Source: Nitrospinaceae bacterium
Lineage (GTDB): Bacteria > Nitrospinota > Nitrospinia > Nitrospinales > VA-1
Length of the DNA stretch: 64,000 nt
Direction: 5' to 3'
Assembly (NCBI GenBank): GCA_029261655.1
Contig: JAJDAY010000026.1
Span: 138,362 to 202,361, forward strand
In this document: positions 1 to 63,949 of the stretch, one piece after another
Position numbering within the stretch: the first letter of the stretch is position 1
Layout of the letters: every line of letters starts with the position of its first letter
Program-made: the position numbers and the translations under genes
The notes under the pieces: generated by a model
The model's database searches: none
What the model was told of the DNA's origin: nothing
Seen by the model: the letters and a program-made list of their open reading frames with translations, nothing else

Positions 1-38
1 TTTGCGAATCGTCTTCAGGTTTTTCGCCAATATTGACA
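1..38 (-). CDS. 5' end of an unidentified CDS running off the window (MSILAKNLKTIRK...)
   Basis: ATG at 36-38 on the minus strand, preceded by a strong SD (GGAGAAGGAGAAG, rc of 41-55). Only 13 codons are visible. Confidence 0.25.
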
Positions 39-43939: not shown

Positions 43940-45217
43940 ATGAAATTAGATAAAAGTGAGCCATTATCCGAAGAAGCAGAAGAACAAATCCGCAAGAGAA
44001 CCGAAGAATACCGGGTTCTCCATAATGTAGCGAAATCCCTTCAGTCCCCCGAAGGAACAGAAAAAATGTTGCAAGAGGCCATGAAGGCCATTGTCGAATA
44101 TGGAGAGCTCAAGGTCGAATATAAAGCCGGAATATTTTTGGCAGACGAGGAAAAACGGGTCCTGAATCTTTACACCTGGATTGGAAACTTTTCAAATGAG
44201 TTTCTTGAATCTGAAAAAGTAGTCCCCTATGGAGAATGTCTATGCGGACGGGCGGCGGCGTCGGGTGAAATGATTATCAGCAACAATTGTTTTTCCGATA
44301 AACGCCATGACAACCAGTTTAAAGACATGACGGCGCATGGGCATTATATTGTTCCTCTGAAAAGCCGAAATAAATTAGTGGGTATTTTGTTTCTTTATAC
44401 CGACCCGGACCCGCCCTGGTTCGAACGCAATCAGGAAATTCTTTTAACGATGGGCAGTCTCATTGCGGATGCCATTGAACAAAGAAAAGGCGAGGAGCAA
44501 ATCCGTAAAAAAAATAAGGAGCTTCATGAGTTAAATGAACTAAAAAACAAATTTCTTGGCATCGCCTCGCATGATTTGCGAAATCCGCTTTTCCTCATTC
44601 GATCCTATAGCGAAATATTGATTGACGGGACTCCTGGGAGCATCAATGAAAAGCAAAAGAAGCTCCTGCAAAAAATATTCACCTCCAGTGACTTCATGAA
44701 AGCTCTCCTTGAAAATCTGCTGGATATTTCAAAAATCGAGAGCGGAAATATCGAGCTGGATAAAAAGGTGCAGGATTTTAATGAGACCACCAAAAATCAG
44801 ATGGAATTATTCGAGCTTCTTGCTCAAAAAAAACAAATCAATCTTCACCTGAAACTGGGAGAGCTTCCTCCTTTTGCTTACGACAAAAATGCTGTGGTCC
44901 AGGCCATTGGTAACTTTATTGGCAACGCCATCAAATTCTCCCCCGCCAATACAAACATTTATGTCTCTACAGAAAACAAAAAGAGCCGGGCGCAATTTTC
45001 GGTTCGTGATGAAGGACCGGGAATTTCAGAAGAAGATCAAAAGTTGTTATTTGGAGAGTTTCAAACTTTGAGCGCTAAACCAACTGGAGGAGAAAAGTCC
45101 ACCGGCCTTGGGTTGGCAATTGTGAAAAAATTGGTCAACCTTCATGGGGGAGAAGTCGGAGTTACCAGCGAATTGGGTAAAGGGAGTACATTCTTTTTCA
45201 CCCTTCCCCTGGATTAA
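43940..45217 (+). CDS. GAF-sensor histidine kinase (classical HisKA)
   Basis: GAF region about 65% identical to the 38597 kinase, including CLCGR. H-box GIASHDLRNPL, then N/G1/G2 boxes. Confidence 0.85.
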   Translation: MKLDKSEPLSEEAEEQIRKRTEEYRVLHNVAKSLQSPEGTEKMLQEAMKAIVEYGELKVEYKAGIFLADEEKRVLNLYTWIGNFSNEFLESEKVVPYGECLCGRAAASGEMIISNNCFSDKRHDNQFKDMTAHGHYIVPLKSRNKLVGILFLYTDPDPPWFERNQEILLTMGSLIADAIEQRKGEEQIRKKNKELHELNELKNKFLGIASHDLRNPLFLIRSYSEILIDGTPGSINEKQKKLLQKIFTSSDFMKALLENLLDISKIESGNIELDKKVQDFNETTKNQMELFELLAQKKQINLHLKLGELPPFAYDKNAVVQAIGNFIGNAIKFSPANTNIYVSTENKKSRAQFSVRDEGPGISEEDQKLLFGEFQTLSAKPTGGEKSTGLGLAIVKKLVNLHGGEVGVTSELGKGSTFFFTLPLD

Positions 45218-45248
45218 CAACTAACAGGTTTCTAAAAAGGAAAAACTC

Positions 45249-46736
45249 ATGGGCAATTACTTTCCAGTGAAATCATCTCAGAATACAGCTATGAAACCGC
45301 CATCAACGAATTTTTTGAATGCCGGAAATTCTTCGTTAAAGCTTAAAACGACATTTCAATTTTGTTTCTTTTTTATGGTTCTATTCATTTGGTCCTGTGT
45401 CGGAGCATGGGCCGCCAATGATGAAAGCACCAGGAATCTAATAGAGAACCAATGTTCCAGTTGTCATAAGTTTGAAGGAAAACACGAGTCCAAATTCAAT
45501 TTAAAAGGCCCCGATCTCATGTGGGCGGGAAACAAATATCAGCGCCCGTGGTTGATCCGCTGGTTGACCGGAAAAGAAGAAAACCTTTATCCCAATGGAT
45601 TCCGGTGGGATATCTCCAGAGACCAGATAAAACATCCTGTTCTTTCGGAAGCCGTGGCCAACGACGTGGCCGATTATTTTGAAAAACATTTTCTTGATTC
45701 CAGAATAAAAAAGAGTTTTGTCGATCTTTCAACTTTCACAGAACAGGAGTCCCAGTTTGGGGCTGCAATTTTCAAGGAATTTTCCTGCCTGGGATGCCAT
45801 CAGATCAAAGAGGACGGTAAAAAAATTGGCGGACCCATCAGCGCTAATCTTTACGATTCGGGAAATCGATACAATTTGGATTGGTGGTCCAAGTTCGCGG
45901 AAAACCCGCAGAATTTTACTCCGCACAGTGGTGAATATCTTGCCGACCTCAGCATGCTGGGAGCGCGATACATCATCGGCTATTTAATGACTTTGGGTGT
46001 TGAGGATTTTAAATATTTTGAACCGTGGAAAGCAGAGCCATTTCAAAAAGCCGATGTCAAACGCGGAGCTACGGTTTACCGCGAGTATTGCGTTCAATGT
46101 CATGGACCACAAGGGGGCGGCGATGGTCCGGGAGCCTCTGGACTGGAACCGAAACCCGCAGTGCACGCGAAAATGGACCTCAATGAATTTCCAGAAGATT
46201 ATCTTTACAATCTGGTTTATTACGGCGGAAAAACGGTTGGCAAATCCCCAAACATGCCCGACTGGGGAATGACCATCGGAGAGCAGGGTGTGGCCGATGT
46301 CATCGCTTATATGCAAGAAACCTTCAAAACCGGTGAAGCGGTATCAGACGATCCAGGAAAGAAGGCCCAGGGAGACTGTCCACAAAAACGCAACACCAAA
46401 ACGGTTTCCTTTAAATACAGCAACAGGAAAAATCCCTTGGAACCCACACCCGCCAACCTGAAAGCGGGAGAAGCTCTGTATCAGAAAACGGCCAAACCCA
46501 TGGCTTGCAAGCTCTGTCATGGGAAACTGGGCGATGGCAAAGGTCCCGGAGGGGCGGGCGTCAAACCCGCACCTCGGAACTTCACCTGTCAGGCGACCAT
46601 GCAGGAAATATCCGACGGACAAATGTTCGGCGTCATCAAGGCCGGTTCTCCCGGTACAGCAATGCCTGCTTTCAAAAATCTCAAGGACAAAGAAGTGTGG
46701 CAACTGATTCTTTATATTCGGAGCTTCTCAAAATGA
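45249..46736 (+). CDS. tetrahaem c-type cytochrome (four class-I-like domains)
   Basis: Signal/TM, then CSSCH, CLGCH, CVQCH and CKLCH. The last domain is paralogous to the two mono-haem cytochromes. Confidence 0.8.
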   Translation: MGNYFPVKSSQNTAMKPPSTNFLNAGNSSLKLKTTFQFCFFFMVLFIWSCVGAWAANDESTRNLIENQCSSCHKFEGKHESKFNLKGPDLMWAGNKYQRPWLIRWLTGKEENLYPNGFRWDISRDQIKHPVLSEAVANDVADYFEKHFLDSRIKKSFVDLSTFTEQESQFGAAIFKEFSCLGCHQIKEDGKKIGGPISANLYDSGNRYNLDWWSKFAENPQNFTPHSGEYLADLSMLGARYIIGYLMTLGVEDFKYFEPWKAEPFQKADVKRGATVYREYCVQCHGPQGGGDGPGASGLEPKPAVHAKMDLNEFPEDYLYNLVYYGGKTVGKSPNMPDWGMTIGEQGVADVIAYMQETFKTGEAVSDDPGKKAQGDCPQKRNTKTVSFKYSNRKNPLEPTPANLKAGEALYQKTAKPMACKLCHGKLGDGKGPGGAGVKPAPRNFTCQATMQEISDGQMFGVIKAGSPGTAMPAFKNLKDKEVWQLILYIRSFSK

Positions 46737-51775: not shown

Positions 51776-53926
51776 TCAAAAGAACGCTCGTGCTCCGAGT
51801 GAAAAGAAATAGTTGGTGGATTTTTGCGAATCGCCAATTACCGTTTCATTGATCCATTCCCTCCCGCCTTCCAACTCAAATCGGAGCCATCGTTTCCAAC
51901 GGTAATCCAGTCTCACCAGCGGTCGGATGTTGACCCGGTCTCCATCGTCATTTTTATTTTTACGATAATCAATTCGTACTCTGGGGTTGATCCGTAAATC
52001 GCGGGTTATGGGAAACCGCAAGTTTAAGTCGGCAGAATAGCTGTCAACGTTTTGCAGGTCTGAATAACGCAGTCCAAATATTGCAATGTCGTTCTCCATA
52101 AAAAGACTACTGCCTATCAATTGGCTACTATAGAAAAACTCCGCTCCGGTGCTGGGCAATGCAGGGACTCCTCCTGAAGCGGGAGTTCCGGATAGTTCGG
52201 ATACGGAAAATTCCCCGTTTAATTGAAACTGTTCATTTAACTCCTGAGTCACGCTGAATATCATGGATCGACTCTTAGCGGTTCGGTCCTTAGCCAATTG
52301 CCGAACCTCCTCTTCACTCAATGTTCTCAACAAATCGGAAATATTACTCACTCCCTGTTGGCCTTGCAACGCGTTGCTTGTGGTTAGAATCGGACTTTTT
52401 CTATAGTCCAAAGTAAGACGCCAACGTGTTTTTACAGGAAAAACATAATCCCCTGAAAAAATAAACAAGTTCAATTCCTTGAAAGAAACATCGTAATCAA
52501 CAAGAGTCAAAAATGACCGTTGGGGATGAAAATAACGAGTCTCTCCTCCCACCGCCTGACGATCCGTTATCCCATCAACATCCTGATTGATTCCATAGAT
52601 GTTAAAATTCCAGTACTTGGCAAATGTACCGAGGTCTAAACTCATTCCATAAAAACGTTTGTTTATGTCCAACGGCTCCACTCTAGTGGATTGAACCGGA
52701 ACGCCTGCAACGCCATTTATTTTAACTTTGGAATTGATTCCATAACTTAGCAAACCTCCATCATATCTTCCAAGAACTCCCCCTGAGCTTTCAAATTGTC
52801 GACCAAACCTGCCAAATAATTTTCGTTTTAAATCTTTAACCTCAATATTCAGGGTATTGACGGAGGCTTCGCCTTCATCACCATTTTCCCTAAAGTCCTG
52901 GTCATACCCTCCCACAAACTGGGTGCGGATCTCATATTTGTCAGATCGGGAACGCGTGCTGAAATCAAAATCAGAGCTTAGGTCAGAACGATTGATCCGG
53001 GACGCCCCCGTACTGTCCGAATCAGTTTCATCAAAACTGTAAAATTGCGAAAAACTGCCAAAAACCTGAGTATCCCAAACCGTTTCCTCAGGATCCCTGG
53101 AAATTTTTGCGCTACGTAATCTTTCTTTAGGCTTGTCTCCGGCAGTGAGCAATCCATTCAGTCTTTGTTTAACCCGGTCCGCACCCTCCCCTTTTGGATA
53201 TTTTTTTAAATATTTTTCATACTCAGCTTTCGCATGGGCCAATTGATTGTTTCTATCGCGTGCCAATCCAATTAATTCCTGAGCATCCTGAGAAAGATCT
53301 GATTCCGGACGACTCAAAATTTTTGTATACAACTGAATGGCGCGCGGGTAGTTTTCCGCCGTCATTTCCTTTTTGGCCTCTTTCATGGCCTCGATGAGTT
53401 TGGGGTCGGCCTTCGAGGGTTTGGCAAGAGGCAAGCCGGGTTCCTTTGGTTCTCGTACTTTTTTTTCTTCTTTGGGTTTGACGTCAGATTTTACGAAAAA
53501 AATCAGCGACCGGAGGTCCCCACTACTTTGCAAATTAAAATCCACTTTACGGGAAAACCTGAATACCAGGACAGGGAGTCTTGGGCTACTGCCGTCAAAT
53601 GTCATTTCTTTCAGAGGTACAGGAATAGAGCGATCCCAGCTCAAGGCCTCCCTGTCTTCAAACTGTTTCAATATTTCCGTGTCCTCCAACGTGACTCCGG
53701 AAATGGGGCTCATTTCAATGAGAACAGTCTCGGATGGCGTAGTGGGTCGATGTTTTACATAACGTAAAGGCAGAATAAAATTAACGCGTATTTCATAGCC
53801 CGTGGCCCGTGTCTCGATTTCGACGTTATCCACAATACGCGCCGAGACCTGTGAGGCACTGAACAACAAGGTCGCCACGCACAAAAATAAAGTAAAAACC
53901 GGTATGATTTTGTTTCTTAAAACCAC
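51776..53926 (-). CDS. outer-membrane protein: periplasmic N-domain + TPR-like linker + C-terminal beta-barrel
   Basis: Signal peptide (..SQVSA|R), Lys/Pro-rich linker, TPR-like helices, then about 450 aa of alternating amphipathic strands ending in ...YFFSLGARAFF (aromatic C-terminus typical of OM barrels). Last gene of the cytochrome operon. Confidence 0.7.
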   Translation of the reverse strand: MVLRNKIIPVFTLFLCVATLLFSASQVSARIVDNVEIETRATGYEIRVNFILPLRYVKHRPTTPSETVLIEMSPISGVTLEDTEILKQFEDREALSWDRSIPVPLKEMTFDGSSPRLPVLVFRFSRKVDFNLQSSGDLRSLIFFVKSDVKPKEEKKVREPKEPGLPLAKPSKADPKLIEAMKEAKKEMTAENYPRAIQLYTKILSRPESDLSQDAQELIGLARDRNNQLAHAKAEYEKYLKKYPKGEGADRVKQRLNGLLTAGDKPKERLRSAKISRDPEETVWDTQVFGSFSQFYSFDETDSDSTGASRINRSDLSSDFDFSTRSRSDKYEIRTQFVGGYDQDFRENGDEGEASVNTLNIEVKDLKRKLFGRFGRQFESSGGVLGRYDGGLLSYGINSKVKINGVAGVPVQSTRVEPLDINKRFYGMSLDLGTFAKYWNFNIYGINQDVDGITDRQAVGGETRYFHPQRSFLTLVDYDVSFKELNLFIFSGDYVFPVKTRWRLTLDYRKSPILTTSNALQGQQGVSNISDLLRTLSEEEVRQLAKDRTAKSRSMIFSVTQELNEQFQLNGEFSVSELSGTPASGGVPALPSTGAEFFYSSQLIGSSLFMENDIAIFGLRYSDLQNVDSYSADLNLRFPITRDLRINPRVRIDYRKNKNDDGDRVNIRPLVRLDYRWKRWLRFELEGGREWINETVIGDSQKSTNYFFSLGARAFF

Positions 53927-53994: not shown

Positions 53995-56625
53995 TCAAAA
54001 ACCTCCGCCACTAGGTCGATGCTCAGGGCCATTACGAGTTTTACTGATGCCGCCGTTATTGTTAAGTATGTGGCATGACCCCGCGCAATCCCTCAATTCG
54101 CTGACGGTGTATTTACGATCCGGGTTCTCAGACTTTTTATGAGGATCCGTTTTGTAATCATTTGCGTGGCAACCGGCGCAATCGGGCTTGAACCCTGCAG
54201 AGGTATAAGTTGGAATTTGATTGTTACTCTTATGACAATCGAGACAACCCACACTGGATCTGTGATCTCCCGGATAATTCGGTGACGAATGCCTGAAGTC
54301 GATTGGCGTAAATCGATTGGTGTTGTGGCATTCATCGCATTGCACATTCGTCACAAAATGGTTGCCCGGTTTGCCCGTTGCCGTGGTGCCGTTGTGACAG
54401 GAGGAACAACTCCCATTGACGGAAGCATGATCGAAATTGGCCGGACTCCAGGCCAAAGTGGTATGGCAGTCATCGCATTGTGCAGAGGTCTGAACGTGGG
54501 TCGGGTGTTTTCCCGTTGCCGTAGTCCCATTATGACAACTGGAACAGGTTCCCGTCACACCGCTGTGGTCGAAATTGACATTCGTCCAACTACTGGTGAC
54601 ATGACAGTCGTCGCACAAATTGTTGGTAGAAATATGATTTTGCGATTTACCCCGCGCTGTTGTTCCATTGTGGCAGTTGAAACAAGTCCCCACAACGGAG
54701 GCGTGATCGACCCGCGTCACCGGGCTCCAGCGCGTGGTGACATGGCAGTCGTCGCAGGTGTTGGCGGTATTGATGTGCGTGCTGTTCTTGCCCGTAGCGG
54801 TTGTTCCATTATGACAACTCGCGCAGTTTCCCGTCACACTGCTGTGGTCAAACCGGGCTCCCGACCAGCTTGAGGTGGTATGACAATCGTCACAGGTGTT
54901 TGCACTCTGAATATGATTGTTGCCTTTGCCTTGCGCGGTCGATCCATTGTGGCAGTTGAAACAAGTCCCAACAACGGAGGCGTGATCGACCCGTGTCACC
55001 GGGCTCCAGCGCGTGGTGACATGACAGTCGTCGCAGGTATTGGCCGTATTGATGTGCGTGCTGTTCTTGCCCGTAGCGGTTGTGCCATTGTGGCAACTCG
55101 CGCAGTTTCCGGTCACACTGCTGTGGTCGAAATTGACATTCGTCCAACCACTCGTGGTATGACAATCGTCACAGGTGTTTGCACTCTGAATATGATTGTT
55201 GCCTTTGCCCTGTGCGGTCGATCCGTTGTGACAGCTGGAACAGGCACCAACAACGGAGGCGTGATCGACCCGTGTCACCGGGCTCCAGCGCGTGGTGACA
55301 TGACAGTCGTCGCAGGTGTTGGCCGTATTGATGTGAGTGCTATTTTTCCCGGTCGCGGTTGTGCCATTATGACAACTCGCGCAGGTTTGGGTGATGCCCG
55401 TGTGATCGAAAGTAGCGGCGGCCCAACTGCTGGTGATATGACAGTTGTCGCACGGCGCGTTGGTCTGCAGGTGATTCGGCGATTTGCCGCGTCCCGCCCC
55501 GCCGGTCACGTGACAGCTGGCGCAGGTGCCCTGCACCGACAAGTGATCCACACGGGTGGCCGGGGTGAACGTGCTGGTGTTGTGACAGTTGTCGCAGGTA
55601 TTGTCGGTGCGCATGTGGTTCGGTGATTTCGCCGTTCCCGCTCCGCCGGGGGTGTGACAGCTCACGCAGGTTTGGGTGATGCCGCTGTGGTCAAAAGTAG
55701 CGACGGCCCAACTGTTGGTGATATGACAGTTGTCGCACGGCGCGTTGGTCTGTAAGTGGTTCGGCGATTTGCCTTGTGCTGTTATTCCATTGTGACAGCT
55801 CACGCAGTTTCCTGTCACACTGTTGTGGTCAAATTTGGCTCCGGACCAGGTTGCTGTGGTATGGCAAGTATCGCAGGTGTTGGGGCTGACGATATGTTGG
55901 GTCCCCTTGCCTTGTGCCATTTTTCCATTATGGCAACTGGAGCAGGTTCCCATGACCGCGTCATGATCCACTCTAACGACGCTTGACCAGGTGCCGCTGT
56001 CGTGGCAGGACTCGCATGTTTTAGTGGTCAGGGGGTGATTGACTGACATGGGTGAGGCCGCTATCTGGCCACCAAGAGTATGGCATGAAGAACAGGTTTT
56101 TGGAGTCCCTGCGAAAACACCGCGTACATGACAACTTTCACATTCAACTTTTGCATGCGCGCCGTCCAAAGGGAATCCGGATGAAAGATGATCAAACTCT
56201 GAAGGTTCTGTCCAATTTTTTTCATCGTAGGTTTTTTCCTGAACCAGTGGATTTTTCTCCTTGAGAGGATCACTGCCTGGTTGAATATTTTCTTCCTCCG
56301 GCGCAGTTTTTATTAAGGCTTTTTCGTCATCACTTTTTCCAAAGAAAAAATCTAAAATCCCCGCAGTGCGTATTATTTTTTCTTTTTGGCGGACTTGAGG
56401 GTTTTGCTCAATTGCGCCAATAGAGGCATCCTCTGAAAATGAAAAATGCGATGGCGTCGAAGCCAATGAACTCAGGGGCAAGACAAGTGTAATCGCCAAT
56501 ATCCAAAACGTTAGAAGACTTTTAAACACGATCAAGCGTTTATGGGGTACCGTGTATTCAAGTCTGACGGGTCTATCGCCAACCTTGAAGGATTTAAATT
56601 TACGACAAACCATCTCGCTTTTCAT
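53995..56625 (-). CDS. giant multihaem c-type cytochrome (29 CxxCH + 1 Cx3CH), paired-CXXCH repeat type
   Basis: 876 aa with a signal/TM anchor. 29 CxxCH motifs were counted by eye in about 90-aa modules (..CASCHNG..H..T.NTCDDCH..), plus CAGSCH. ATGA overlap with the upstream cytochrome gene. Confidence 0.85.
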   Translation of the reverse strand: MKSEMVCRKFKSFKVGDRPVRLEYTVPHKRLIVFKSLLTFWILAITLVLPLSSLASTPSHFSFSEDASIGAIEQNPQVRQKEKIIRTAGILDFFFGKSDDEKALIKTAPEEENIQPGSDPLKEKNPLVQEKTYDEKNWTEPSEFDHLSSGFPLDGAHAKVECESCHVRGVFAGTPKTCSSCHTLGGQIAASPMSVNHPLTTKTCESCHDSGTWSSVVRVDHDAVMGTCSSCHNGKMAQGKGTQHIVSPNTCDTCHTTATWSGAKFDHNSVTGNCVSCHNGITAQGKSPNHLQTNAPCDNCHITNSWAVATFDHSGITQTCVSCHTPGGAGTAKSPNHMRTDNTCDNCHNTSTFTPATRVDHLSVQGTCASCHVTGGAGRGKSPNHLQTNAPCDNCHITSSWAAATFDHTGITQTCASCHNGTTATGKNSTHINTANTCDDCHVTTRWSPVTRVDHASVVGACSSCHNGSTAQGKGNNHIQSANTCDDCHTTSGWTNVNFDHSSVTGNCASCHNGTTATGKNSTHINTANTCDDCHVTTRWSPVTRVDHASVVGTCFNCHNGSTAQGKGNNHIQSANTCDDCHTTSSWSGARFDHSSVTGNCASCHNGTTATGKNSTHINTANTCDDCHVTTRWSPVTRVDHASVVGTCFNCHNGTTARGKSQNHISTNNLCDDCHVTSSWTNVNFDHSGVTGTCSSCHNGTTATGKHPTHVQTSAQCDDCHTTLAWSPANFDHASVNGSCSSCHNGTTATGKPGNHFVTNVQCDECHNTNRFTPIDFRHSSPNYPGDHRSSVGCLDCHKSNNQIPTYTSAGFKPDCAGCHANDYKTDPHKKSENPDRKYTVSELRDCAGSCHILNNNGGISKTRNGPEHRPSGGGF
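54598..55434. repeat. three tandem near-identical ~279-bp repeats inside the 29-haem cytochrome gene (plus a second duplicated block at about 55400-55490 and 55690-55780)
   Basis: ggtatgacaatcgtcacaggtgtttgcactctgaatatgattgttgcctttgcc recurs at 54877 and 55156 (period 279 nt = 93 aa). Flanking copies are about 90% identical. Antisense ORFs 54289..54873 and 54880..55626 show the same repeating peptide. Confidence 0.85.
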
Positions 56626-58613
56626 TGCAATAGCCCCCTGCGTTGCATGTTGACTTCTTTAAAAGATTCCGTTGTGTGGCATCTTTCGCACTGGTTTCCA
56701 AATCGACCCCTGTGAGTATCATCTCCCTGATGGCACTCTGAACAGTATTTTGGAAGTTCCATTTTCTTTTCCACTTCCTTGGTATGACATGCTTTGCACT
56801 CCAACCCGGAATGAGCCCCATCAAGTTTAAATTTTGACTGCGTGTTGTGGTCAAACTTCCACAGGTTCCAATGGTTGGGGTTATGACAGGTTTCACAGCG
56901 AGTGCCCTGGCGTTTCTTGTGAAAATCATCCTTGAGATGGCAATTGATGCAATCTGCCTTAACAGCGTTGAATTCCATGGAAGAGTGGCAATCGTCGCAA
57001 GTCGTAATTGCATGAATTCCGATAAGAGGAAAATTTGTCAGATCATGATCGAATTGAATATTTTTTCCCCAGGCGATATTGTTATGGCAACGGTCGCATT
57101 TTTCGCCTACCTGTCCTTTATGAACATCATCGGCTTTGTGACAGCCATAACAGGTTTTGGAAACCTGAATCTTTTTCTCGACCGGTTGGGTATGGCATAA
57201 GTGACAGTTCAAGTCTTTATGGTAACCACGCAAAAGAAACTTTGTTTGCCGGCTGTGATCAAATTGCCAGAGGTTCCATCCTTCCGATTTGTGACACAAA
57301 CCGCAATCGCTTCCCAGCCGTTTTTTATGCATGTCATCCTTGATATGGCAATCCACACACTTGGACCCCACATTTTTAAATTCAGCTGAAAGATGGCATT
57401 GTTCGCAGGTGGTTGCCACGTGCAATCCCATTAGAGGAAACAGGGTTTTATTGTGATCAAACTTAACGTTTTTTTTCCAGCTTTGCTGGTCATGGCATTT
57501 ATCGCACTTCTTTCCCTCCTGGCCTTTATGCACATCGTCAGCTTTATGACAGTCGTAGCACTTGGTTTTATTTTTTTCTTTTTCTGGAAGTCCTTTATGA
57601 CAATTCTGGCACTGGAGTTTCGTGTGCTTTCCGACCAGCTTAAATTTGGTGTCTTTATCGTGATCAAAATGCACTGTTTTCCATACTTTTGAGTTGTGGC
57701 AGGATTCGCATTTGGTGCCGAATCCGCCTTTATGCTCATCATCATTTTTATGGCAGGAAATGCAGGTTATCTTTAGTTTTTCTTTTTTGGGATTGCCTTT
57801 GTGGCAATCATTGCATTTCAACTTTGCGTGGCTGTCTTTCAATGGAAATTTGGTGTCCTTGGCGTGATCGAAGCTCGTTTTTTTCCATGTTTTTGGGGTG
57901 TGACATTTTTCACATTTTATTCCCAGATCTCCTCGGTGTACGTCGTTCAGAGCGTGACACCCGTTACAAGTTTTAAGCGTTTTTTTGTATCTCTCATCGG
58001 GGTGGCAACTGTTGCATTTGACTTCCCGATGCTTGCCTTCTAAAGCAAATTTGGTTTTCTTGTCGTGATCGAAAAAAGCTTTACTCCAGGCTGTTTCCTT
58101 GTGGCAGTCCTGGCATTTCTTTCCCAGTCTTTCAAGGTGCGGGTCATCGTTCTTATGGCAGAAATAGCAGTCCACAGGAGATTCCCGGTATTTCTTTTTA
58201 GAATCATGGCAGTCGTAACATTTGACCGAGGTGTGAGCCCCTTTTAAGGGGAAGTCTGTGAATTGGTGATCAAACGTGTCTTCATCCAGATGAATAATGT
58301 CCGCGCTACGTCCTTCATGATCGGTGTGACAGAGTTTGCATTTTTTTCTGGCGATATCTTTTTTCAGGCCGTGAAACCCCTTTTTATCAACGATGTCCTT
58401 ATTCACTTTCTTGTGGCAATCACGGCACAATTTATTTTGCGTCTTCTTGTCAAACAGGGAATGGCATTCAGTACACTCGGTTTCAATCTTGGCGTGTCCC
58501 TCAATTACGGGTCCTGGCATCACAAGATTTTCCAAAGGCCCTGCAACTGCCCGCGATGAAGAAAGCATTAAACAGACTCCTATTGCCAATCCAATTAAAA
58601 AACGAACATTCAC
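56622..58613 (-). CDS. 27-haem c-type cytochrome: nine tandem triheme cytochrome-c7-like modules
   Basis: 27 CxxCH motifs in a regular about 75-aa unit (F.H.....F.L.G.H....C..CH-(10-12)-C..CH..D.H...G..C..CH), as in PpcA/c7 polymers. Start placed at the GTG at 58613 (VNVRFLIGLAIGVCLMLSSSRAVA signal), because the longer ORF would overlap the upstream gene by 82 nt. Confidence 0.85.
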   Translation of the reverse strand: MNVRFLIGLAIGVCLMLSSSRAVAGPLENLVMPGPVIEGHAKIETECTECHSLFDKKTQNKLCRDCHKKVNKDIVDKKGFHGLKKDIARKKCKLCHTDHEGRSADIIHLDEDTFDHQFTDFPLKGAHTSVKCYDCHDSKKKYRESPVDCYFCHKNDDPHLERLGKKCQDCHKETAWSKAFFDHDKKTKFALEGKHREVKCNSCHPDERYKKTLKTCNGCHALNDVHRGDLGIKCEKCHTPKTWKKTSFDHAKDTKFPLKDSHAKLKCNDCHKGNPKKEKLKITCISCHKNDDEHKGGFGTKCESCHNSKVWKTVHFDHDKDTKFKLVGKHTKLQCQNCHKGLPEKEKNKTKCYDCHKADDVHKGQEGKKCDKCHDQQSWKKNVKFDHNKTLFPLMGLHVATTCEQCHLSAEFKNVGSKCVDCHIKDDMHKKRLGSDCGLCHKSEGWNLWQFDHSRQTKFLLRGYHKDLNCHLCHTQPVEKKIQVSKTCYGCHKADDVHKGQVGEKCDRCHNNIAWGKNIQFDHDLTNFPLIGIHAITTCDDCHSSMEFNAVKADCINCHLKDDFHKKRQGTRCETCHNPNHWNLWKFDHNTQSKFKLDGAHSGLECKACHTKEVEKKMELPKYCSECHQGDDTHRGRFGNQCERCHTTESFKEVNMQRRGLLQ

Positions 58614-58639: not shown

Positions 58640-59593
58640 TTAATAAGCATGCACCGCTATCACATGAAATATGCCCGAACACAACAGCATGATCGCAAGC
58701 GGTAGATGAAACACATGCCAAAGAGAGAACATGCGCTCGTAGAAATTAAATTCTGCGACTTTACGAACATGGCGTAAAAGGGTCCAAACCCTGCGATTGG
58801 CTTCTTTTTGCATCCTTCGTTGATGAGAGGATTCCCCGTCACCGCGCTTTCTTCGGAAATTCAATTCAAGTGTCATCAAACGTCTGATTTGCCAAAATTC
58901 AACACGGGTCGTAATTCCCATAACAAGGACACTTGCCAAACTTTGAAAAAAACCTTGGCGGGAGTTCAACACTTTTTCTGAAAAAGTAAGCAGGTGTTTG
59001 GAAATCGGGGGAGAAAAATCCAACATTTCCGCCATCTCCCCTTTTTCGGTTTCGTATCTCTTCCGCAAATCGTTTAGAGTTGCGCGGCGCCCATACAAAC
59101 CATAGTGAATTCTTTTGTACATATACCGTCCAATCAGACCACTGGAAGCGACCACGATCATTGAAAAGAAAGCCACGTTGCTATTGAGTGATCCGAGTTG
59201 AAAATTTGCATGGAATAAAATGCATACAGGCCCAATAACCCCCATGATCATGTGAGTCTGGAACATTGTTTTTACGCTTCCAAAAGGCTCCATGAAACGG
59301 TATCGCTTACGCAATGGATAAATAACCAGAGCGAGCATCAGGACCGACCCTACGATCCCCAGGACATAACCCGTTCCTGATTCCGCAGTGAAATACTCGC
59401 GCGCGCGAATTTTCCATCCGGCGTAGATAACAAAGCAGACCGTAAAAAAGAAAAATACATTCGCGATTTTGGCTAAAAGTTTTTCTTCTCCCTTGGAGGA
59501 AACAGCCTTCACTTTTTTTTCATCCAGTGAGTTGGTGTCACCCAGAAAATCTGTTGACGTATTTCCAGTCTGGTGTTTTGACAATGCATTCAT
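58640..59593 (-). CDS. integral membrane protein, putative di-haem b-type cytochrome (quinol-interacting)
   Basis: 5 TM helices with His pairs inside TM3 (QTHMIMGVIGPVCILFH, spacing 14) and TM5 (WHVFH...FHVIAVH). Positioned between the Sel1/ANK protein and the multihaem cytochromes. Confidence 0.5.
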   Translation of the reverse strand: MNALSKHQTGNTSTDFLGDTNSLDEKKVKAVSSKGEEKLLAKIANVFFFFTVCFVIYAGWKIRAREYFTAESGTGYVLGIVGSVLMLALVIYPLRKRYRFMEPFGSVKTMFQTHMIMGVIGPVCILFHANFQLGSLNSNVAFFSMIVVASSGLIGRYMYKRIHYGLYGRRATLNDLRKRYETEKGEMAEMLDFSPPISKHLLTFSEKVLNSRQGFFQSLASVLVMGITTRVEFWQIRRLMTLELNFRRKRGDGESSHQRRMQKEANRRVWTLLRHVRKVAEFNFYERMFSLWHVFHLPLAIMLLCSGIFHVIAVHAY

Positions 59594-59604
59594 GATTGGA
59601 TCGG

Positions 59605-62496
59605 TTATTTGGTTGAAAAAATATCAGCCAGCCAGCTTTTAGAATTATTATGGTTTTCAAGAAGTGCCAAGATGTCGTTCCTGCCTTTAGGCACAATCAT
59701 ATGAGCCTGCTCACGATTATTATTCCTGAGATAGGGATCGGCTCCATTTGCCAACAAGATTTCGATGGTCTCCAGATGCCCTCCTGTCACAGCCATTAAT
59801 AAAGCGGTATTGCCGGCGATATTTTTTTCATTAACCTTTGATCCCTTGTTGATGAGCTGACGTACAAGAGCAGAATTTCCCAGGTCCGCGGCAAGCATGA
59901 GAGGGGTATTTCCGGTTTTGCTCTTTACAAAAATATCGGCTCCTGCCAAAACCAAACGCCGGGCAGTTGCCTCATGCCCTTTTGCAGTGGCCTGCAATAA
60001 TGGAGTGTTCCCATCGCGGTCTTTAAATTCCGTGGTTGTTTTTTTACCCAACAAAGTTTCAACGACCATCGTCTGGCCGGCGTCGGCAGCAAACCACAAC
60101 ACGTCACGCCCTTCCGAGTCCTGAGAATTCAAACGGGCGCCTTTATTGAGCAACGATTTCACCAAATCGATCTTTCCTGAATAGGATGCGAGCATCAACA
60201 CGGTAATTCCATCACCACGCTTCAGATTGGTATCAGCGCCGCGATCCAATAACAGTTGCGCCACCTGTTCATGAGAGTTCAGGGCGGCGTTGATCAATGG
60301 GCTGGCTCCATCACTTGATTGAGCATTGGGGTTTGCGCCCGCATTCAACAACTGTTCGACAACAGAAAGATGGCCCTTTTCAGCGGCCCAATGCAGGGGC
60401 GATTTTCCATCCGGTTGCGCCACCTTTGGGTCCGCCCCTTTGGATAATAAAGCGCGCGCAATTTCTTCATGGCCTTTCCAGGCGGCACGGCTGAGGGGCG
60501 TGTGCCCCTGGGGGTCGGTGAAATTCACGTTGTCGCCTCTGGAAAGCAAGGCGTTAACGACTTTGGTTTGCCCGCGCCAGGCGGCAGTCATTAATGGAGA
60601 CCAACCTTTAAAGGTAGCCTCCGGCGAAAGGTTTGCGAGAATACTTTTTGAACTGGAAGCAAACGGGGAGGAATTCTTATTTCTGCTTGTATCCAGAGTC
60701 GCGCCCCTGGCAAGGAGCGTTTGCAGAATGGGTTTATATCCTCTGACATGGGCGATCTGAGCCGCCGTCATATCCTTATGGTTCTTGATCTCAACGTCAG
60801 CGCCTTTTTCCAAAAGGACCCCCACAATGGTTTTGTTTCTTTTTTGCGTCGCCAATAATAAAGGTGTGTTTCCGTTTGGGTCTTGAGAGTTTAGATCTGC
60901 CCCCGCTTCCAGCAATTGGAAGATGGTGGAAGGGTCTCCCCTGTTCACCGCCATAAAAAGAGCGTTGTCTCCGTATTTATTGACCGCGTGAACATCCGCG
61001 CCCGCCTTAAGCAAAGTATTGATCACGTCCAGGCGATTTTCTTCCACCGCCAGTATCAGAGCGGTTCGCCCCGACGCTTCGCGCGCATTGATATTCACAC
61101 CCAGTTTGATCAAGGAACCCACCTCCTCCGCCAAACCCCGGCTTGCTGCCTGCAGTAAATTTTTCTCTGCGACGCCATTGATATTGGCTTTCAGCTTTTG
61201 ACGTTCTTCCTGTTCTTGCTCCAGCTTTGCCTTGGCGGTCAAATGACCTTGTTCAAATGCCGCCTGAAACCATTTCCTAGCCTTGCTCTGGCTCCGCTTC
61301 ACTCCCAACCCATTTTCAAACATGACTCCCAGGTTGTATTGAGCATTGGCATGGCCTTGAGACGCGGACATTTCCAGCCAACGAACTGCTTCTTTCTGAC
61401 TTTTTGGCAAACCCAGTCCCGACCGATATAAATTCGATAATTGAAATTGCGCTTCGGCATGTCCAGCCTTTGCAAGCGGTTTTATTAATTGAATCGCTTT
61501 AGAAAAGTCTTCATTGAGTACAGCGGTTTTGGAGGTTTGCAGTTGTTGCGTGGAATAAAGACTCTTTAAGATGAGTTTGTCTTGCTGAGATTTTGCGATT
61601 TGGATTGCGGTCTGGTCGTCGCTGTTTTTGATTTCTAAATCTGCTCCATGGTTCAGTAACGCCAGGACCAGTTTTGAATCATTTTTTTGAGTGGCCAGGA
61701 TCAAAGACGAGTTGCCATTTTTATCCTGAGCATTGGTATTTGCATTGGCGTTCAGAAGCCAGGTCACAACGGGAAGATGCCCTTTGCCAGCCGCGATCAA
61801 TAGAGCAGAATTGCCAAAATCGTCGATGGCATGTATATCCGCTCCTGCTTTCAACAGAGATTGTACAATTTCCAAATATCCCTGATCGGACGCCAGCATC
61901 AAGGGGGTCCGTCCTTTTTCATCCGTGACATTGACATTTATTTTTTTCTCGATGAGTTCCTTTATTTTTTTAATATCGCCAGTAAAGGAATGCCGTAGTA
62001 AATTCTTTTTATTGATAAGGACCGAATCGGTTTTGAAACGCTTCTGGATTTTCTCTTCCCTTTCCAGTTTGCGTTTCGCCATCACATGATCTTTTGCCGC
62101 CGCCGCGCGGAACCAATCCAACGCCTCCTGTTGGTTTTTCTCCACACCCCAGCCGTTTTCATACATGATTCCCATCGTGTACTGAGCGTCCAAATTGTCC
62201 TGTGCGGCGGCGCGATTCAGCCATTTGATGGCCTGCTCATAATCTCTGGGGACGCCTTTTCCTGAACGCAATAAACTGGCCAGTTGATACTGGGCTTCAG
62301 AATTCCCGTCCCTGGCCAAAGGCTCCAGCAACTCAGCGGCTCTGGAGAAATCTCTCACGCGGGCCGCGGCTTTGGCCGCATCCATGTCTCCGGCATGGCT
62401 GAGGGAAAAATTAAAAGCCCAGGATAAAATCAAAAAGCTCAGGTTTGCCAAAGCGATTATTGGGATTTTTGATTTCATTGAATATGAAAAGTTCAT
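59605..62496 (-). CDS. secreted Sel1-repeat + ankyrin-repeat protein with internally duplicated [3xSel1-4xANK] architecture
   Basis: Signal peptide. Two Sel1-like blocks (GDM.AAKAA...AQYQLASLLRSGKGVPRDYEQAIKWL; GHAEAQFQLSNLYRSGLGLPKSQKEAVRWL) each followed by ANK repeats (TPLMLAS..G..E.V..LL.AGAD...D..G.T.L), about 20 ANK repeats in total. Confidence 0.8.
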   Translation of the reverse strand: MNFSYSMKSKIPIIALANLSFLILSWAFNFSLSHAGDMDAAKAAARVRDFSRAAELLEPLARDGNSEAQYQLASLLRSGKGVPRDYEQAIKWLNRAAAQDNLDAQYTMGIMYENGWGVEKNQQEALDWFRAAAAKDHVMAKRKLEREEKIQKRFKTDSVLINKKNLLRHSFTGDIKKIKELIEKKINVNVTDEKGRTPLMLASDQGYLEIVQSLLKAGADIHAIDDFGNSALLIAAGKGHLPVVTWLLNANANTNAQDKNGNSSLILATQKNDSKLVLALLNHGADLEIKNSDDQTAIQIAKSQQDKLILKSLYSTQQLQTSKTAVLNEDFSKAIQLIKPLAKAGHAEAQFQLSNLYRSGLGLPKSQKEAVRWLEMSASQGHANAQYNLGVMFENGLGVKRSQSKARKWFQAAFEQGHLTAKAKLEQEQEERQKLKANINGVAEKNLLQAASRGLAEEVGSLIKLGVNINAREASGRTALILAVEENRLDVINTLLKAGADVHAVNKYGDNALFMAVNRGDPSTIFQLLEAGADLNSQDPNGNTPLLLATQKRNKTIVGVLLEKGADVEIKNHKDMTAAQIAHVRGYKPILQTLLARGATLDTSRNKNSSPFASSSKSILANLSPEATFKGWSPLMTAAWRGQTKVVNALLSRGDNVNFTDPQGHTPLSRAAWKGHEEIARALLSKGADPKVAQPDGKSPLHWAAEKGHLSVVEQLLNAGANPNAQSSDGASPLINAALNSHEQVAQLLLDRGADTNLKRGDGITVLMLASYSGKIDLVKSLLNKGARLNSQDSEGRDVLWFAADAGQTMVVETLLGKKTTTEFKDRDGNTPLLQATAKGHEATARRLVLAGADIFVKSKTGNTPLMLAADLGNSALVRQLINKGSKVNEKNIAGNTALLMAVTGGHLETIEILLANGADPYLRNNNREQAHMIVPKGRNDILALLENHNNSKSWLADIFSTK

Positions 62497-62499
62497 GGA

Positions 62500-63810
62500 T
62501 TATTCAGTCCCATGTTTGGTTTCAACCGTGATTCCTATTTCTTTAAGAAACGGTGTCGGGAGTATCCCGCCGGCGCACACGAGGATGGCGTCGTTACTGA
62601 TTTCCTGAACCTCGCCCGCGTTGTCGATTTTCACTTTGTCTTTTGTAATGGATTTGACGTTGGATTCCATCAATACATTCAATCTCCCTTCTTCATCCAT
62701 CCGAGCGACCGTATCCCGGTTTTTTTGTTTGGCGCGGGAAAAGGATTCACTGCGATAAGACAGCGTGACGGTTGTCCCCTTCTCCTCTGCAATGCTGGTC
62801 GCGGCTTCCAGAGCGCTGTCTCCCCCGCCGACCACCAAGACGTGCTGGCCCCTGTATTGTTCAGGGTCGATGAGGCGATAAACCACTTTGGAAAGGTCTT
62901 CTCCAGGGACGCCAAGTTTTCTGGGAGTTCCCCGTCTGCCGATGGATAGTAAAACTCCCCTCGTTTTGTAGGTGGCACGCTGGGTTTTTACTTCAATGAA
63001 ATTTTCCCTGCGGGTCACGGACTCGACCCGTTCGGAATAATTGATTTTGACGTTTGTCTTTTTTTCAACATCTTCCCAAAATTCGAGCAGAGCTTCTTTG
63101 GTGGTTTCCTTGAATGTTGTTTTCCCGAACAGGGGAAGAATGACAGGGGAAGTCATGACGACTTTGCCGCGCGGGTAATGAGAAACGGTTCCGCCCAATG
63201 TTTCCTGTTCCAGGGTCACCGAACGAAGCTTGTGTTCCATCGCCGCTAAAGATGCGGAAAACCCCGCAGGTCCGGCACCGATGACCACCAGATCCAAAAG
63301 ATCTCCTTTACCAATACCCTCTAATTTACGAATGGAATCCACGGCCTGTTTGCCCTGAGTCACGGCGTTACGTATTAGCCCCATGCCGCCCAATTCACCG
63401 GCAATGAAAACTCCTGGAATATTTGTTTCAAAGCTGGGTTTGACCAAAGGGATGTCCACCCCTCGTTTTTCGGTACCAAAAACCAAAGTGATCGCTCCCA
63501 TAGGGCAGGAAACCTTGCAAGACCCGTGACCGATACAATGGGTGGGTCCAATCAACTCGGCCTTCCCCTGTATCATTCCTAATACATTTTTTTCCGGGCA
63601 GGCAGAAATACAGGCCTTGCACCCCACGCATTGAACGGGGTCAATTATGGGATGCAGTGAGGAGGGTTCTATCAATCCGGCTTCGCGTTCCTTGTCCCGA
63701 TGAGCCAGGCTTCGTATCTCCAACCTTTTTCGACGGGCCAAATACCAAACCCAGACCAAAAACGCCGGGACGAGATAAACTAAAGAACTTTGGAGGGTCA
63801 GTCGCATCAT
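62500..63810 (-). CDS. membrane-anchored 2x[4Fe-4S] ferredoxin-domain / FAD-NAD(P)-binding oxidoreductase (thioredoxin-reductase-like)
   Basis: N-terminal TM, CVGCKACISACP and CIGHGSCKVSCP clusters, FAD GxGxxG (VIGAGPAGFSASLAA) and an NAD(P) site (VLVVGGGDSALEAA). 3 nt upstream of the Sel1/ANK gene. ORF open to 63864, with alternative starts at 63810 or 63807. Confidence 0.75.
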   Translation of the reverse strand: MMRLTLQSSLVYLVPAFLVWVWYLARRKRLEIRSLAHRDKEREAGLIEPSSLHPIIDPVQCVGCKACISACPEKNVLGMIQGKAELIGPTHCIGHGSCKVSCPMGAITLVFGTEKRGVDIPLVKPSFETNIPGVFIAGELGGMGLIRNAVTQGKQAVDSIRKLEGIGKGDLLDLVVIGAGPAGFSASLAAMEHKLRSVTLEQETLGGTVSHYPRGKVVMTSPVILPLFGKTTFKETTKEALLEFWEDVEKKTNVKINYSERVESVTRRENFIEVKTQRATYKTRGVLLSIGRRGTPRKLGVPGEDLSKVVYRLIDPEQYRGQHVLVVGGGDSALEAATSIAEEKGTTVTLSYRSESFSRAKQKNRDTVARMDEEGRLNVLMESNVKSITKDKVKIDNAGEVQEISNDAILVCAGGILPTPFLKEIGITVETKHGTE

Positions 63811-63949
63811 TGAAAATGTGATTTTTGGGAGGAAAATTGTTTGATTTGCTCGATAGTTAAGCAAATTTCAAGCCAGTATAAAAAACACGATATAAACCAA
63901 TGCTTTAAAAAATATCGAAATATAAATTTTTAGGATTACCAGTAACAAG

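Follow-up and report, generated by a model that had tools for sequence, protein, structure and literature searches.

Probable gain and loss of in-frame four-haem cassettes in the predicted distal haem wire of a PCC3-type porin-cytochrome cluster from a Nitrospinaceae bacterium

How does a cytochrome that is predicted to act as an electron wire come to carry 30 haems in one genome and 22 at the same place in another? The question is raised by one gene in a 64,000-nucleotide (nt) stretch of DNA from a Nitrospinaceae bacterium (GenBank assembly GCA_029261655.1, contig JAJDAY010000026.1, positions 138,362 to 202,361 of the forward strand). This whole stretch is called the window here, and coordinates are those of the window unless a locus name precedes them. 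The gene lies at 53995–56625 and encodes a protein that an earlier note, made from the letters alone, had described as a 29/30-haem cytochrome built from near-identical tandem DNA repeats. The haem count was right, as the protein has 29 CXXCH motifs and one CX3CH motif in 876 amino acids (aa). The CXXCH motifs follow each other at 23–24 residues, with the lone CX3CH at aa 847. All 60 cysteines of the haem domain fall within the 30 haem motifs, while the 62 histidines are sufficient for two ligands on every haem. Per haem, the protein uses 29.2 aa overall and 24.4 within the haem domain, and its composition is marked by threonine (14%), serine (11%), asparagine (9%) and glycine (9%). From its gene neighborhood and composition, we assign it as the distal ('extracellular') multihaem cytochrome of a predicted porin-cytochrome cluster of the PCC3 kind. 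We consider it likely that this predicted haem wire gains and loses in-frame four-haem cassettes in its central array, while its periplasmic partner is locked in length.

The evidence for a change in length comes from a related locus (L023) on a 245-kb JGI contig, compared together with two shorter relatives, a 64-kb JGI contig (L024) and a 46-kb contig of an NCBI metagenome-assembled genome (MAG; L025, GCA_029261495.1). From the Fer4 gene through to rsmD/mnmA, L023 and the window are collinear, with 78–83% nucleotide identity. The orthologous cytochrome of L023 has 681 aa with 21 CXXCH motifs and one CX3CH motif, resulting in 22 haems, and it aligns end to end with the window protein at 80% identity outside one region. 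In this region, L023 lacks an in-frame 564 nt, corresponding to 188 aa and eight haems. A global aligner places the gap as a single block and MAFFT divides it into two (Table 1); its exact placement within the repeats is ambiguous. The length itself is informative: 564 is the sum of 285 and 279, one period each from the two repeat families in the gene. Repeat copy number thus differs among related genomes, and the earlier suggestion that haem number changes with the repeats holds on an evolutionary scale. The periplasmic cytochrome encoded next door, by contrast, has 27 haems in all four genomes, at 81–88% pairwise identity, and is 648 aa long in the window, L024 and L025.

The direction of at least part of this change can be proposed from the inner-membrane protein of the same cluster, which has closer relatives at 72–83% identity. 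Its identities make L023 and L024 sisters, with L025 the most distant. Units of the TGGAG type are present in the window cytochrome and in the outgroup L025, and absent from both sisters. Because of this distribution, at least one of the differences is most simply explained by a deletion in the lineage of L023 and L024.

These observations suggest the following scheme. Fixed N- and C-terminal caps would enclose a central array of four-haem cassettes, each of 93–95 codons. Because the cassettes are long in-frame direct repeats in the DNA, unequal recombination or replication slippage could add or remove whole cassettes, and gene conversion could reshuffle patches among them. The haem count would shift in steps of four over evolutionary time, leaving the fold undisturbed. 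The product in the window would hold 30 haems in a closely packed chain, probably all bis-His, that relays electrons between an outer-membrane porin and an external partner. The periplasmic partner would stay at 27 haems, its length presumably set by the width of the periplasm.

The repeats themselves are readily seen in the DNA. Tandem Repeats Finder reports a period of 279 with 3.1 copies and 85% matches at 54512–55384, and a second repeat search finds three 279-nt copies at 54631–55467. Set in haem register, they form three units (A, B and C; Table 1) of 93 codons and four haems each, consisting of one 'a' di-haem and one 'b' di-haem. Identity of about 90% or more, as first claimed for the repeats, is found in a 450-nt core (~54945–55395) that averages ~90% to the copy 279 nt away, but not over whole units, which reach 87.8% (A/B) and 82.1% (A/C and B/C). 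'Near-identical' therefore mildly overstates the similarity of whole units (82–88%), as only mosaic tracts reach 97–100%. The best 90-nt window in the core is 97.8% identical to its copy, and the exact tracts measure 71, 56 and 38 nt. The additional duplicated block noticed near 55400/55690 is also present, as a 119-nt pair that covers haems 6–7 and haems 10–11. On/off phase variation by frameshift was considered and rejected, since all repeat periods are multiples of three.

Similar repeats could also be old and static, their likeness held only by purifying selection on the haem fold together with codon bias, with no ongoing expansion, contraction or conversion. Constraint is certainly visible: the haem-binding residues are invariant, the ratio of nonsynonymous to synonymous divergence (dN/dS) between units A, B and C is low (0.14–0.29, with dN 0.06–0.14 and dS 0.45–0.69), and the DNA identity between units is modest in the array of one of the nearest relatives (P0009). 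Yet the repeat signal in the window is far above chance, because no 90-nt window exceeds 0.53 identity when the gene is codon-shuffled, and the adjoining 27-haem gene, equally constrained and also repetitive at the protein level, reaches a maximum of 0.69, versus 0.98 in the cytochrome gene. Identity at silent sites is moreover clustered in long tracts, and at third codon positions it is higher within than between genomes. The 'a' units within the window share 90–94% of all positions and 72–83% of third positions, and those within L023 are 100% identical by both measures. Between the two genomes, these values drop to 85–87% and 64–70%, with third positions no more similar than in the orthologous N-terminal cap (79.5% overall, 64% at third positions). 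That the central units are closer within than between genomes, silent sites included, indicates lineage-specific duplication or gene conversion. With L023 units that are 100% identical over 197 nt, and with syntenic orthologues that differ by eight haems, static repeats appear highly improbable to us. Codon bias or protein constraint alone, as the source of the repeat similarity, is rejected by the shuffled, neighbor-gene and silent-site controls.

The pattern of differences among the units also speaks to mechanism. Variable sites among A, B and C occur in runs that group BC against A, AB against C, or AC against B, resulting in a mosaic. A and B are identical over as many as 71 consecutive nt (permutation P = 0.0005; P = 0.0135 with third positions only), and unit B contains a patch similar to the haem-5 region, at a distance of 981 nt. 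Both the mosaic runs and this patch point to gene conversion besides unequal exchange.

A comparable picture emerges across the family. A protein search with the cytochrome returned 1756 relatives at E ≤ 1e-10, of which the best 120 were used for motif and repeat counts. Among these, the number of CXXCH motifs ranges from 17 to 57 (median 37), and a 46-aa window recurs within the protein at ≥85% identity in 51 of the 120 and at 100% in 12. The nearest database proteins (P0009 with 25 + 1 haems, P0052 with 21 and P0074 with 19 + 1) are all encoded in syntenic clusters. They share with the window cytochrome a fixed three-haem cap at the N-terminus, the cap at the C-terminus and, in between, an array in which 'a' and 'b' di-haems alternate with a 93-aa period. 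In a nearest-neighbor test on the two-haem units of four orthologues at greater distance, central units are nearest to another unit of their own protein (0.98–1.00 in the window, versus 0.72–0.74 to other proteins), and the first and last units are nearest to their positional counterparts in the other proteins. We read this split between center and edge as the signature of lineage-specific duplication or homogenization in the center of the array. At the DNA level, related loci contain 84–100% identical 90-nt repeats at periods of 138, 279, 414, 561 and 702 nt.

Exact-sequence look-ups of the whole cytochrome and of MnmA gave no match, nor did a protein search with the non-repetitive N-terminal 181 aa. 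When metagenomes were scanned with the cytochrome, 14 loci appeared, all at 69% identity or below and none a same-species copy. Genome contigs scanned with the porin yielded nothing beyond a partial match of 31% in a MAG of Sedimenticola; no same-species contig across the array emerged from these look-ups and scans. Some relatives stand out in other ways. In P0074 (L008:8001–9644), aa 240–250 read CFSCHTCDDCH, a junction without the segment between two haem motifs, which is either a true out-of-register recombination product or an assembly join within repeats. P0002 and P0059 are attributed by NCBI to Kaarinaea lacus, classified by the taxonomy among the cyanobacterial Nostocales, where a PCC3-type cytochrome would not be expected; a companion bacterium in a culture that was not axenic may be their source.

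The first reading of the locus had also called it assembly-prone, and independent contigs agree. Run SRR15505512 gave two Logan contigs with 100% identity to the window, one ending at 55723 and the other starting at 54796, so that 54797–55722 is left unspanned between ends that lie inside 37-nt and 38-nt exact repeats. The L024 and L025 contigs both end ~1.0–1.1 kb into the cytochrome gene, and L024 stops with 31 nt that are also present 279 nt upstream. Among the 14 metagenome loci, the gene is cut by a contig end in 10. Because the gene is often truncated or possibly collapsed, haem counts from short-read bins are unreliable in this family of distal cytochromes.

The same behavior raises the question of whether the window has been misassembled, its 279-bp units being wrong in number or order through collapse, expansion or chimerism, so that neither the 30 haems nor the difference from L023 would be biological. 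That k-mer assemblies of the same population leave the array unspanned and that relatives' contigs end within it fits such an artefact; the 197-nt exact repeat in L023, which could conceal collapsed copies, and the odd half-unit junction of P0074 may be added. Nevertheless, we find it distinctly improbable. Units A, B and C are distinguishable (82–88%), and the longest exact repeat of 71 nt falls short of both the length of ordinary reads and the large k values of standard assemblers. The frame is open, every unit retains all its cysteine and histidine ligands, and the flanks match independent contigs at 100% right up to the exact repeats. Furthermore, the TGGAG-type block is absent from L024 as well as from L023 and has no near-identical copy to collapse into. 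With its longest exact repeat of 71 nt, an open frame and every unit intact, the 30-haem structure read from the window sequence is plausible.

A more dynamic alternative, a stronger form of the earlier suggestion, is that of a contingency-type locus, in which cassettes are gained and lost so frequently that cells or co-existing strains carry different haem numbers. The exact tracts of 37–71 nt in the window and of 197 nt in L023 exceed the minimum for RecA-dependent exchange, which is roughly 25–30 nt, and both repeat periods (279 and 285 nt) are in frame. Mixed alleles could also cause short-read assemblies to fragment exactly at the array, as they do here, but exact repeats of ≥31 nt fully explain the contig breaks without any polymorphism, and the flanking sequence is identical in both samples that carry it. 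Tandem-repeat variants do occur within one population in the multihaem cytochrome genes of Borgs (PMC9879509). In the window, however, a unit divergence of 12–18%, with perfect identity over at most 71 nt, should strongly depress recombination, and we regard so high a turnover as unlikely.

Still unlikely, though slightly less so, is the reading that the central array is a length-tuning locus. Recombination among the 279/285-bp cassettes would then create heritable polymorphism within populations in the reach or charge capacity of the wire, in steps of four haems, with the periplasmic wire locked at 27. By analogy with MtrA, each step would amount to roughly 3–4 nm. If true, any selective benefit of length might depend on mineral distance, redox partner or surface predators, and selection by these would sort length variants. 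Natural alleles with 22, 26 and 30 haems would then form a series for studying how the rate and range of electron transfer scale with haem number.

Returning to cassette gain and loss over evolutionary time as the preferred reading, several points weigh against it. The evidence, a comparison between genomes at ~80% identity, is indirect as regards recombination events. Because the units differ by 12–18%, with a dS of 0.45–0.69, the last events in the window genome were not very recent, and present rates may be low. L023 contains exact repeats of 197 and 80 nt whose copies are spaced by 279 nt, and the longer one could have led its copy number to be assembled too low; even so, its missing TGGAG-type block cannot result from the collapse of identical copies. 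The AlphaFold2 model of the whole cytochrome, built from a 25-sequence alignment, is poor (mean per-residue confidence, pLDDT, of 45; predicted template-modeling score, pTM, of 0.21), and we draw no geometry from it. Both the function and the 'extracellular' location of PCC3 are predictions in the literature. Finally, two more distant orthologues carry an N-terminal SPOR domain (P0009, aa 58–130; P0052, aa 77–144), as do the porins of those orthologues (e.g. L005:10857–13403). At least the N-terminus may therefore be periplasmic, which fits poorly with a wholly extracellular protein; the window cytochrome has no SPOR match.

The assignment to PCC3 draws on the surrounding genes. The definition of the PCC3 cluster comes from He et al. 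2017 (PMC5566968), and Hoover et al. 2023 (PMC9900912) surveyed such clusters. In S. lithotrophicus ES-1 (Slit_1446–1449), the cluster is ordered as inner-membrane protein, periplasmic cytochrome, extracellular cytochrome and porin. The inner-membrane protein is described as ~300 aa with five transmembrane helices, two WX3HX13H motifs on helices 3 and 5, and SGXXG on helix 4, and the periplasmic cytochrome as having 21, 24 or 27 haems in tri-haem repeats of 66–67 aa (PMC5566968). The extracellular cytochrome carries 10–35 haems in Gallionellaceae and up to 63 elsewhere (PMC5566968, PMC9900912), and is characterized by a very high haem count, few aa per haem, richness in T/S/A/G and haem-bearing repeat units (PMC5566968).

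The window follows this description closely. Its genes run in the same order, with the inner-membrane protein followed by the 27-haem periplasmic cytochrome, the 876-aa cytochrome and the putative porin, as they also do in L005, L007, L008 and L023. The inner-membrane protein is of the ~300-aa size and contains two HX13H motifs plus SGXXG; a tryptophan at position −4 is present for the second HX13H motif only, and a simple hydropathy scan gives 4–5 hydrophobic segments. It has 1064 homologues, none with a Pfam domain, and an identical copy is carried on a 416-kb NCBI contig. The periplasmic cytochrome shows a haem spacing pattern of 16–18/18/33 and Pfam Cytochrome_C7 matches. The distal cytochrome is rich in T/S/G/A, has ~24–29 aa per haem and internal repeats, and with 29–30 haems lies inside the published range; its haem periodicity of 23–24 aa equals that of the Riftia-endosymbiont example in the supplement of PMC5566968. 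Because gene order, inner-membrane motifs, the 27 haems and the composition of the distal cytochrome all fit the definition, the PCC3 assignment follows. The putative porin has a signal peptide and a C-terminal aromatic residue, and profile searches found no barrel-family match for it; its position is likewise occupied in L005, L008 and L023. All six genes of the cluster lie on the minus strand, abutting or overlapping, and the start ATG of the 876-aa cytochrome overlaps the stop of the preceding gene (ATGA), as it does in L023.

Table 1. Positions of the cytochrome gene, its repeats and domains, and the genes around it (nt of the window; aa or haem numbers for parts of the protein)
Feature	Position	Strand	Details
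Multihaem cytochrome gene	53995–56625	minus	single long open reading frame (ORF)
Hydrophobic signal-type segment	aa 31–49		followed by ~100-aa linker
N-terminal cap	haems 1–5		
Variable array	haems 6–23		
Conserved C-terminal cap	haems 24–30		
Tandem 279-bp units in haem register	54547–55383	minus	A 55105–55383, B 54826–55104, C 54547–54825
Second direct repeat, 119-nt pair	55370–55488 and 55655–55773	minus	91% identical, 285 nt apart
Block present in window, absent in L023	55237–55800	minus	single block by global aligner; 95 aa + 93 aa by MAFFT
Putative outer-membrane porin	51776–53926	minus	716 aa; signal peptide, weak BamD/TPR-like N-terminal region, C-terminal ...ARAFF
Periplasmic PCC3 cytochrome	56622–58568	minus	648 aa; 27 CXXCH as 9 tri-haem c7-type repeats
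PCC3 inner-membrane protein	58640–59593	minus	317 aa; HX13H at H114/H128 and H296/H310, WX3HX13H at 292, SGXXG at 151
Ankyrin/Sel1 protein	59605–62496	minus	963 aa; signal peptide
Membrane-anchored oxidoreductase (Fer4-FAD)	62500–63864	minus	2x[4Fe-4S] and FAD/NAD(P)-binding

Beyond the four PCC3 genes, the ankyrin/Sel1 and Fer4-FAD genes form a pair that adjoins the inner-membrane protein gene in L005, L006, L008 and L023–L026, and it is present in every related locus where that side is visible. These conserved neighbors go beyond the PCC3 papers; the ankyrin neighbor is not mentioned in PMC5566968. Together with the inner-membrane protein, which is di-haem b-like, the pair resembles a split NOX/FRE-type module. 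Such a module could connect cytoplasmic NAD(P)H to the conduit, implying outward electron flow.

Named homologues of the cytochrome come from Rhodocyclaceae/Rhodocyclales and from Paucibacter, a relative of Leptothrix. They hint, suggestively only, at a link to the reference PCC3 proteins (Slit_1446–1449 and those of L. cholodnii SP-6).

Profile searches place the 876-aa cytochrome among multihaem proteins in general. Its Pfam matches are generic (Cytochrome_C7, Cytochrom_c3_2, MtrC/MtrF domain II/IV and Paired_CXXCH_1), and every NCBIfam match scores under its cutoff. PDB searches found no close relative with a solved structure, and the best profile matches, to MtrC, MtrA and GSU1996, are distant, partial and driven by haem motifs. 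The protein resembles MtrCAB/MtoAB in the predicted overall logic of a periplasmic haem wire with a porin and an outer haem protein, and it has profile matches to MtrC (4lm8, E ~4e-17) and MtrA (6r2q, 6e-14), besides sub-threshold NCBIfam DmsE-family and Pfam MtrC/MtrF domain II/IV matches. The Mtr proteins differ, however, in having a fixed number of 10 haems and no tandem cassette array. Membership in the MtrA/DmsE decahaem family (TIGR03508) was rejected, as the score of 143.4 bits lies under the cutoff of 192.2 and there are 30 haem motifs, not 10. The Geobacter dodecahaem GSU1996 (3ov0; profile E = 8e-13), a polymeric c7 'nanowire', is also a linear concatenation of small haem modules. 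Its tri-haem type is that of the neighboring 27-haem gene, whereas the 876-aa cytochrome is built of di-haem pairs in four-haem cassettes with 23–24 aa per haem; the NCBIfam nanowire_3heme match of the latter reaches 20 bits where 40 are needed.

Two further systems offer parallels for the DNA repeats. Elongated surface proteins of Gram-positive cocci (alpha C/Rib, Aap/SasG) contain long in-frame repeats of hundreds of bp that each encode one structural module. Their length changes by whole modules through recombination; the repeats are usually >95–100% identical, and strain-level variation is documented. This is an analogy only, since the proteins are unrelated to the window cytochrome, in which identity is 82–94%. 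The second parallel is with Borgs, whose extracellular multihaem cytochrome genes evolve fast and contain tandem DNA repeats (Schoelmerich et al. 2023, PMC9879509). These Borg repeats consist of short, perfect units and contribute disordered linkers rich in Pro/Thr, leaving the haem domains intact and adding none (PMC9879509), whereas in the window gene the repeat is itself a folded four-haem cassette.

For PCC3, the literature already describes a variable haem number, protein-level repeats and a haem wire that varies in length, with repeats and haem number treated at the protein level only (PMC5566968, PMC9900912). Our literature search found no paper on DNA-level cassette structure and dynamics, on homogenization of units within a genome, on an indel of repeat-period length between syntenic orthologues or on the contrast with a fixed periplasmic partner. 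The window cytochrome thereby adds a useful mechanistic refinement, as DNA-level evidence on how length may change in a known kind of cytochrome. PCC3 is widespread, with >1700 homologues of the cytochrome and >1000 of the inner-membrane protein, and is a leading candidate for electron exchange with minerals, although its function is predicted. Gain and loss of cassettes would offer a concrete mechanism for the published spread of 10–63 haems, and closely related natural alleles with 22 and 30 haems are a means to compare wire length with function.

Some smaller observations concern the gene calls at this locus and its surroundings. Two plus-strand ORFs, 54289–54873 and 54880–55626, span the repeat array. 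We rejected both as genes, as they are antisense shadow ORFs of the array, and an exact-sequence look-up of the second found no match. In Logan contig L003, where the gene is cut by the contig end, the caller annotated such an antisense ORF (L003:2–508) in place of the cytochrome. For the 27-haem gene, the mechanical ORF reaches back to a TTG at 58721 and overlaps the gene for the inner-membrane protein; the ATG at 58568, which gives 648 aa and is used by public gene calls in three genomes, is the likelier start. In L023, a phage-type integrase gene (L023:14172–15383) lies between the porin gene and the 157-aa/rsmD/mnmA genes, and is absent at the equivalent position of the window. Some 5 kb downstream of the cluster, on the opposite strand (43940–46736, plus), the window encodes a GAF histidine kinase and a 495-aa protein with two class-I/cbb3-type cytochrome c domains.

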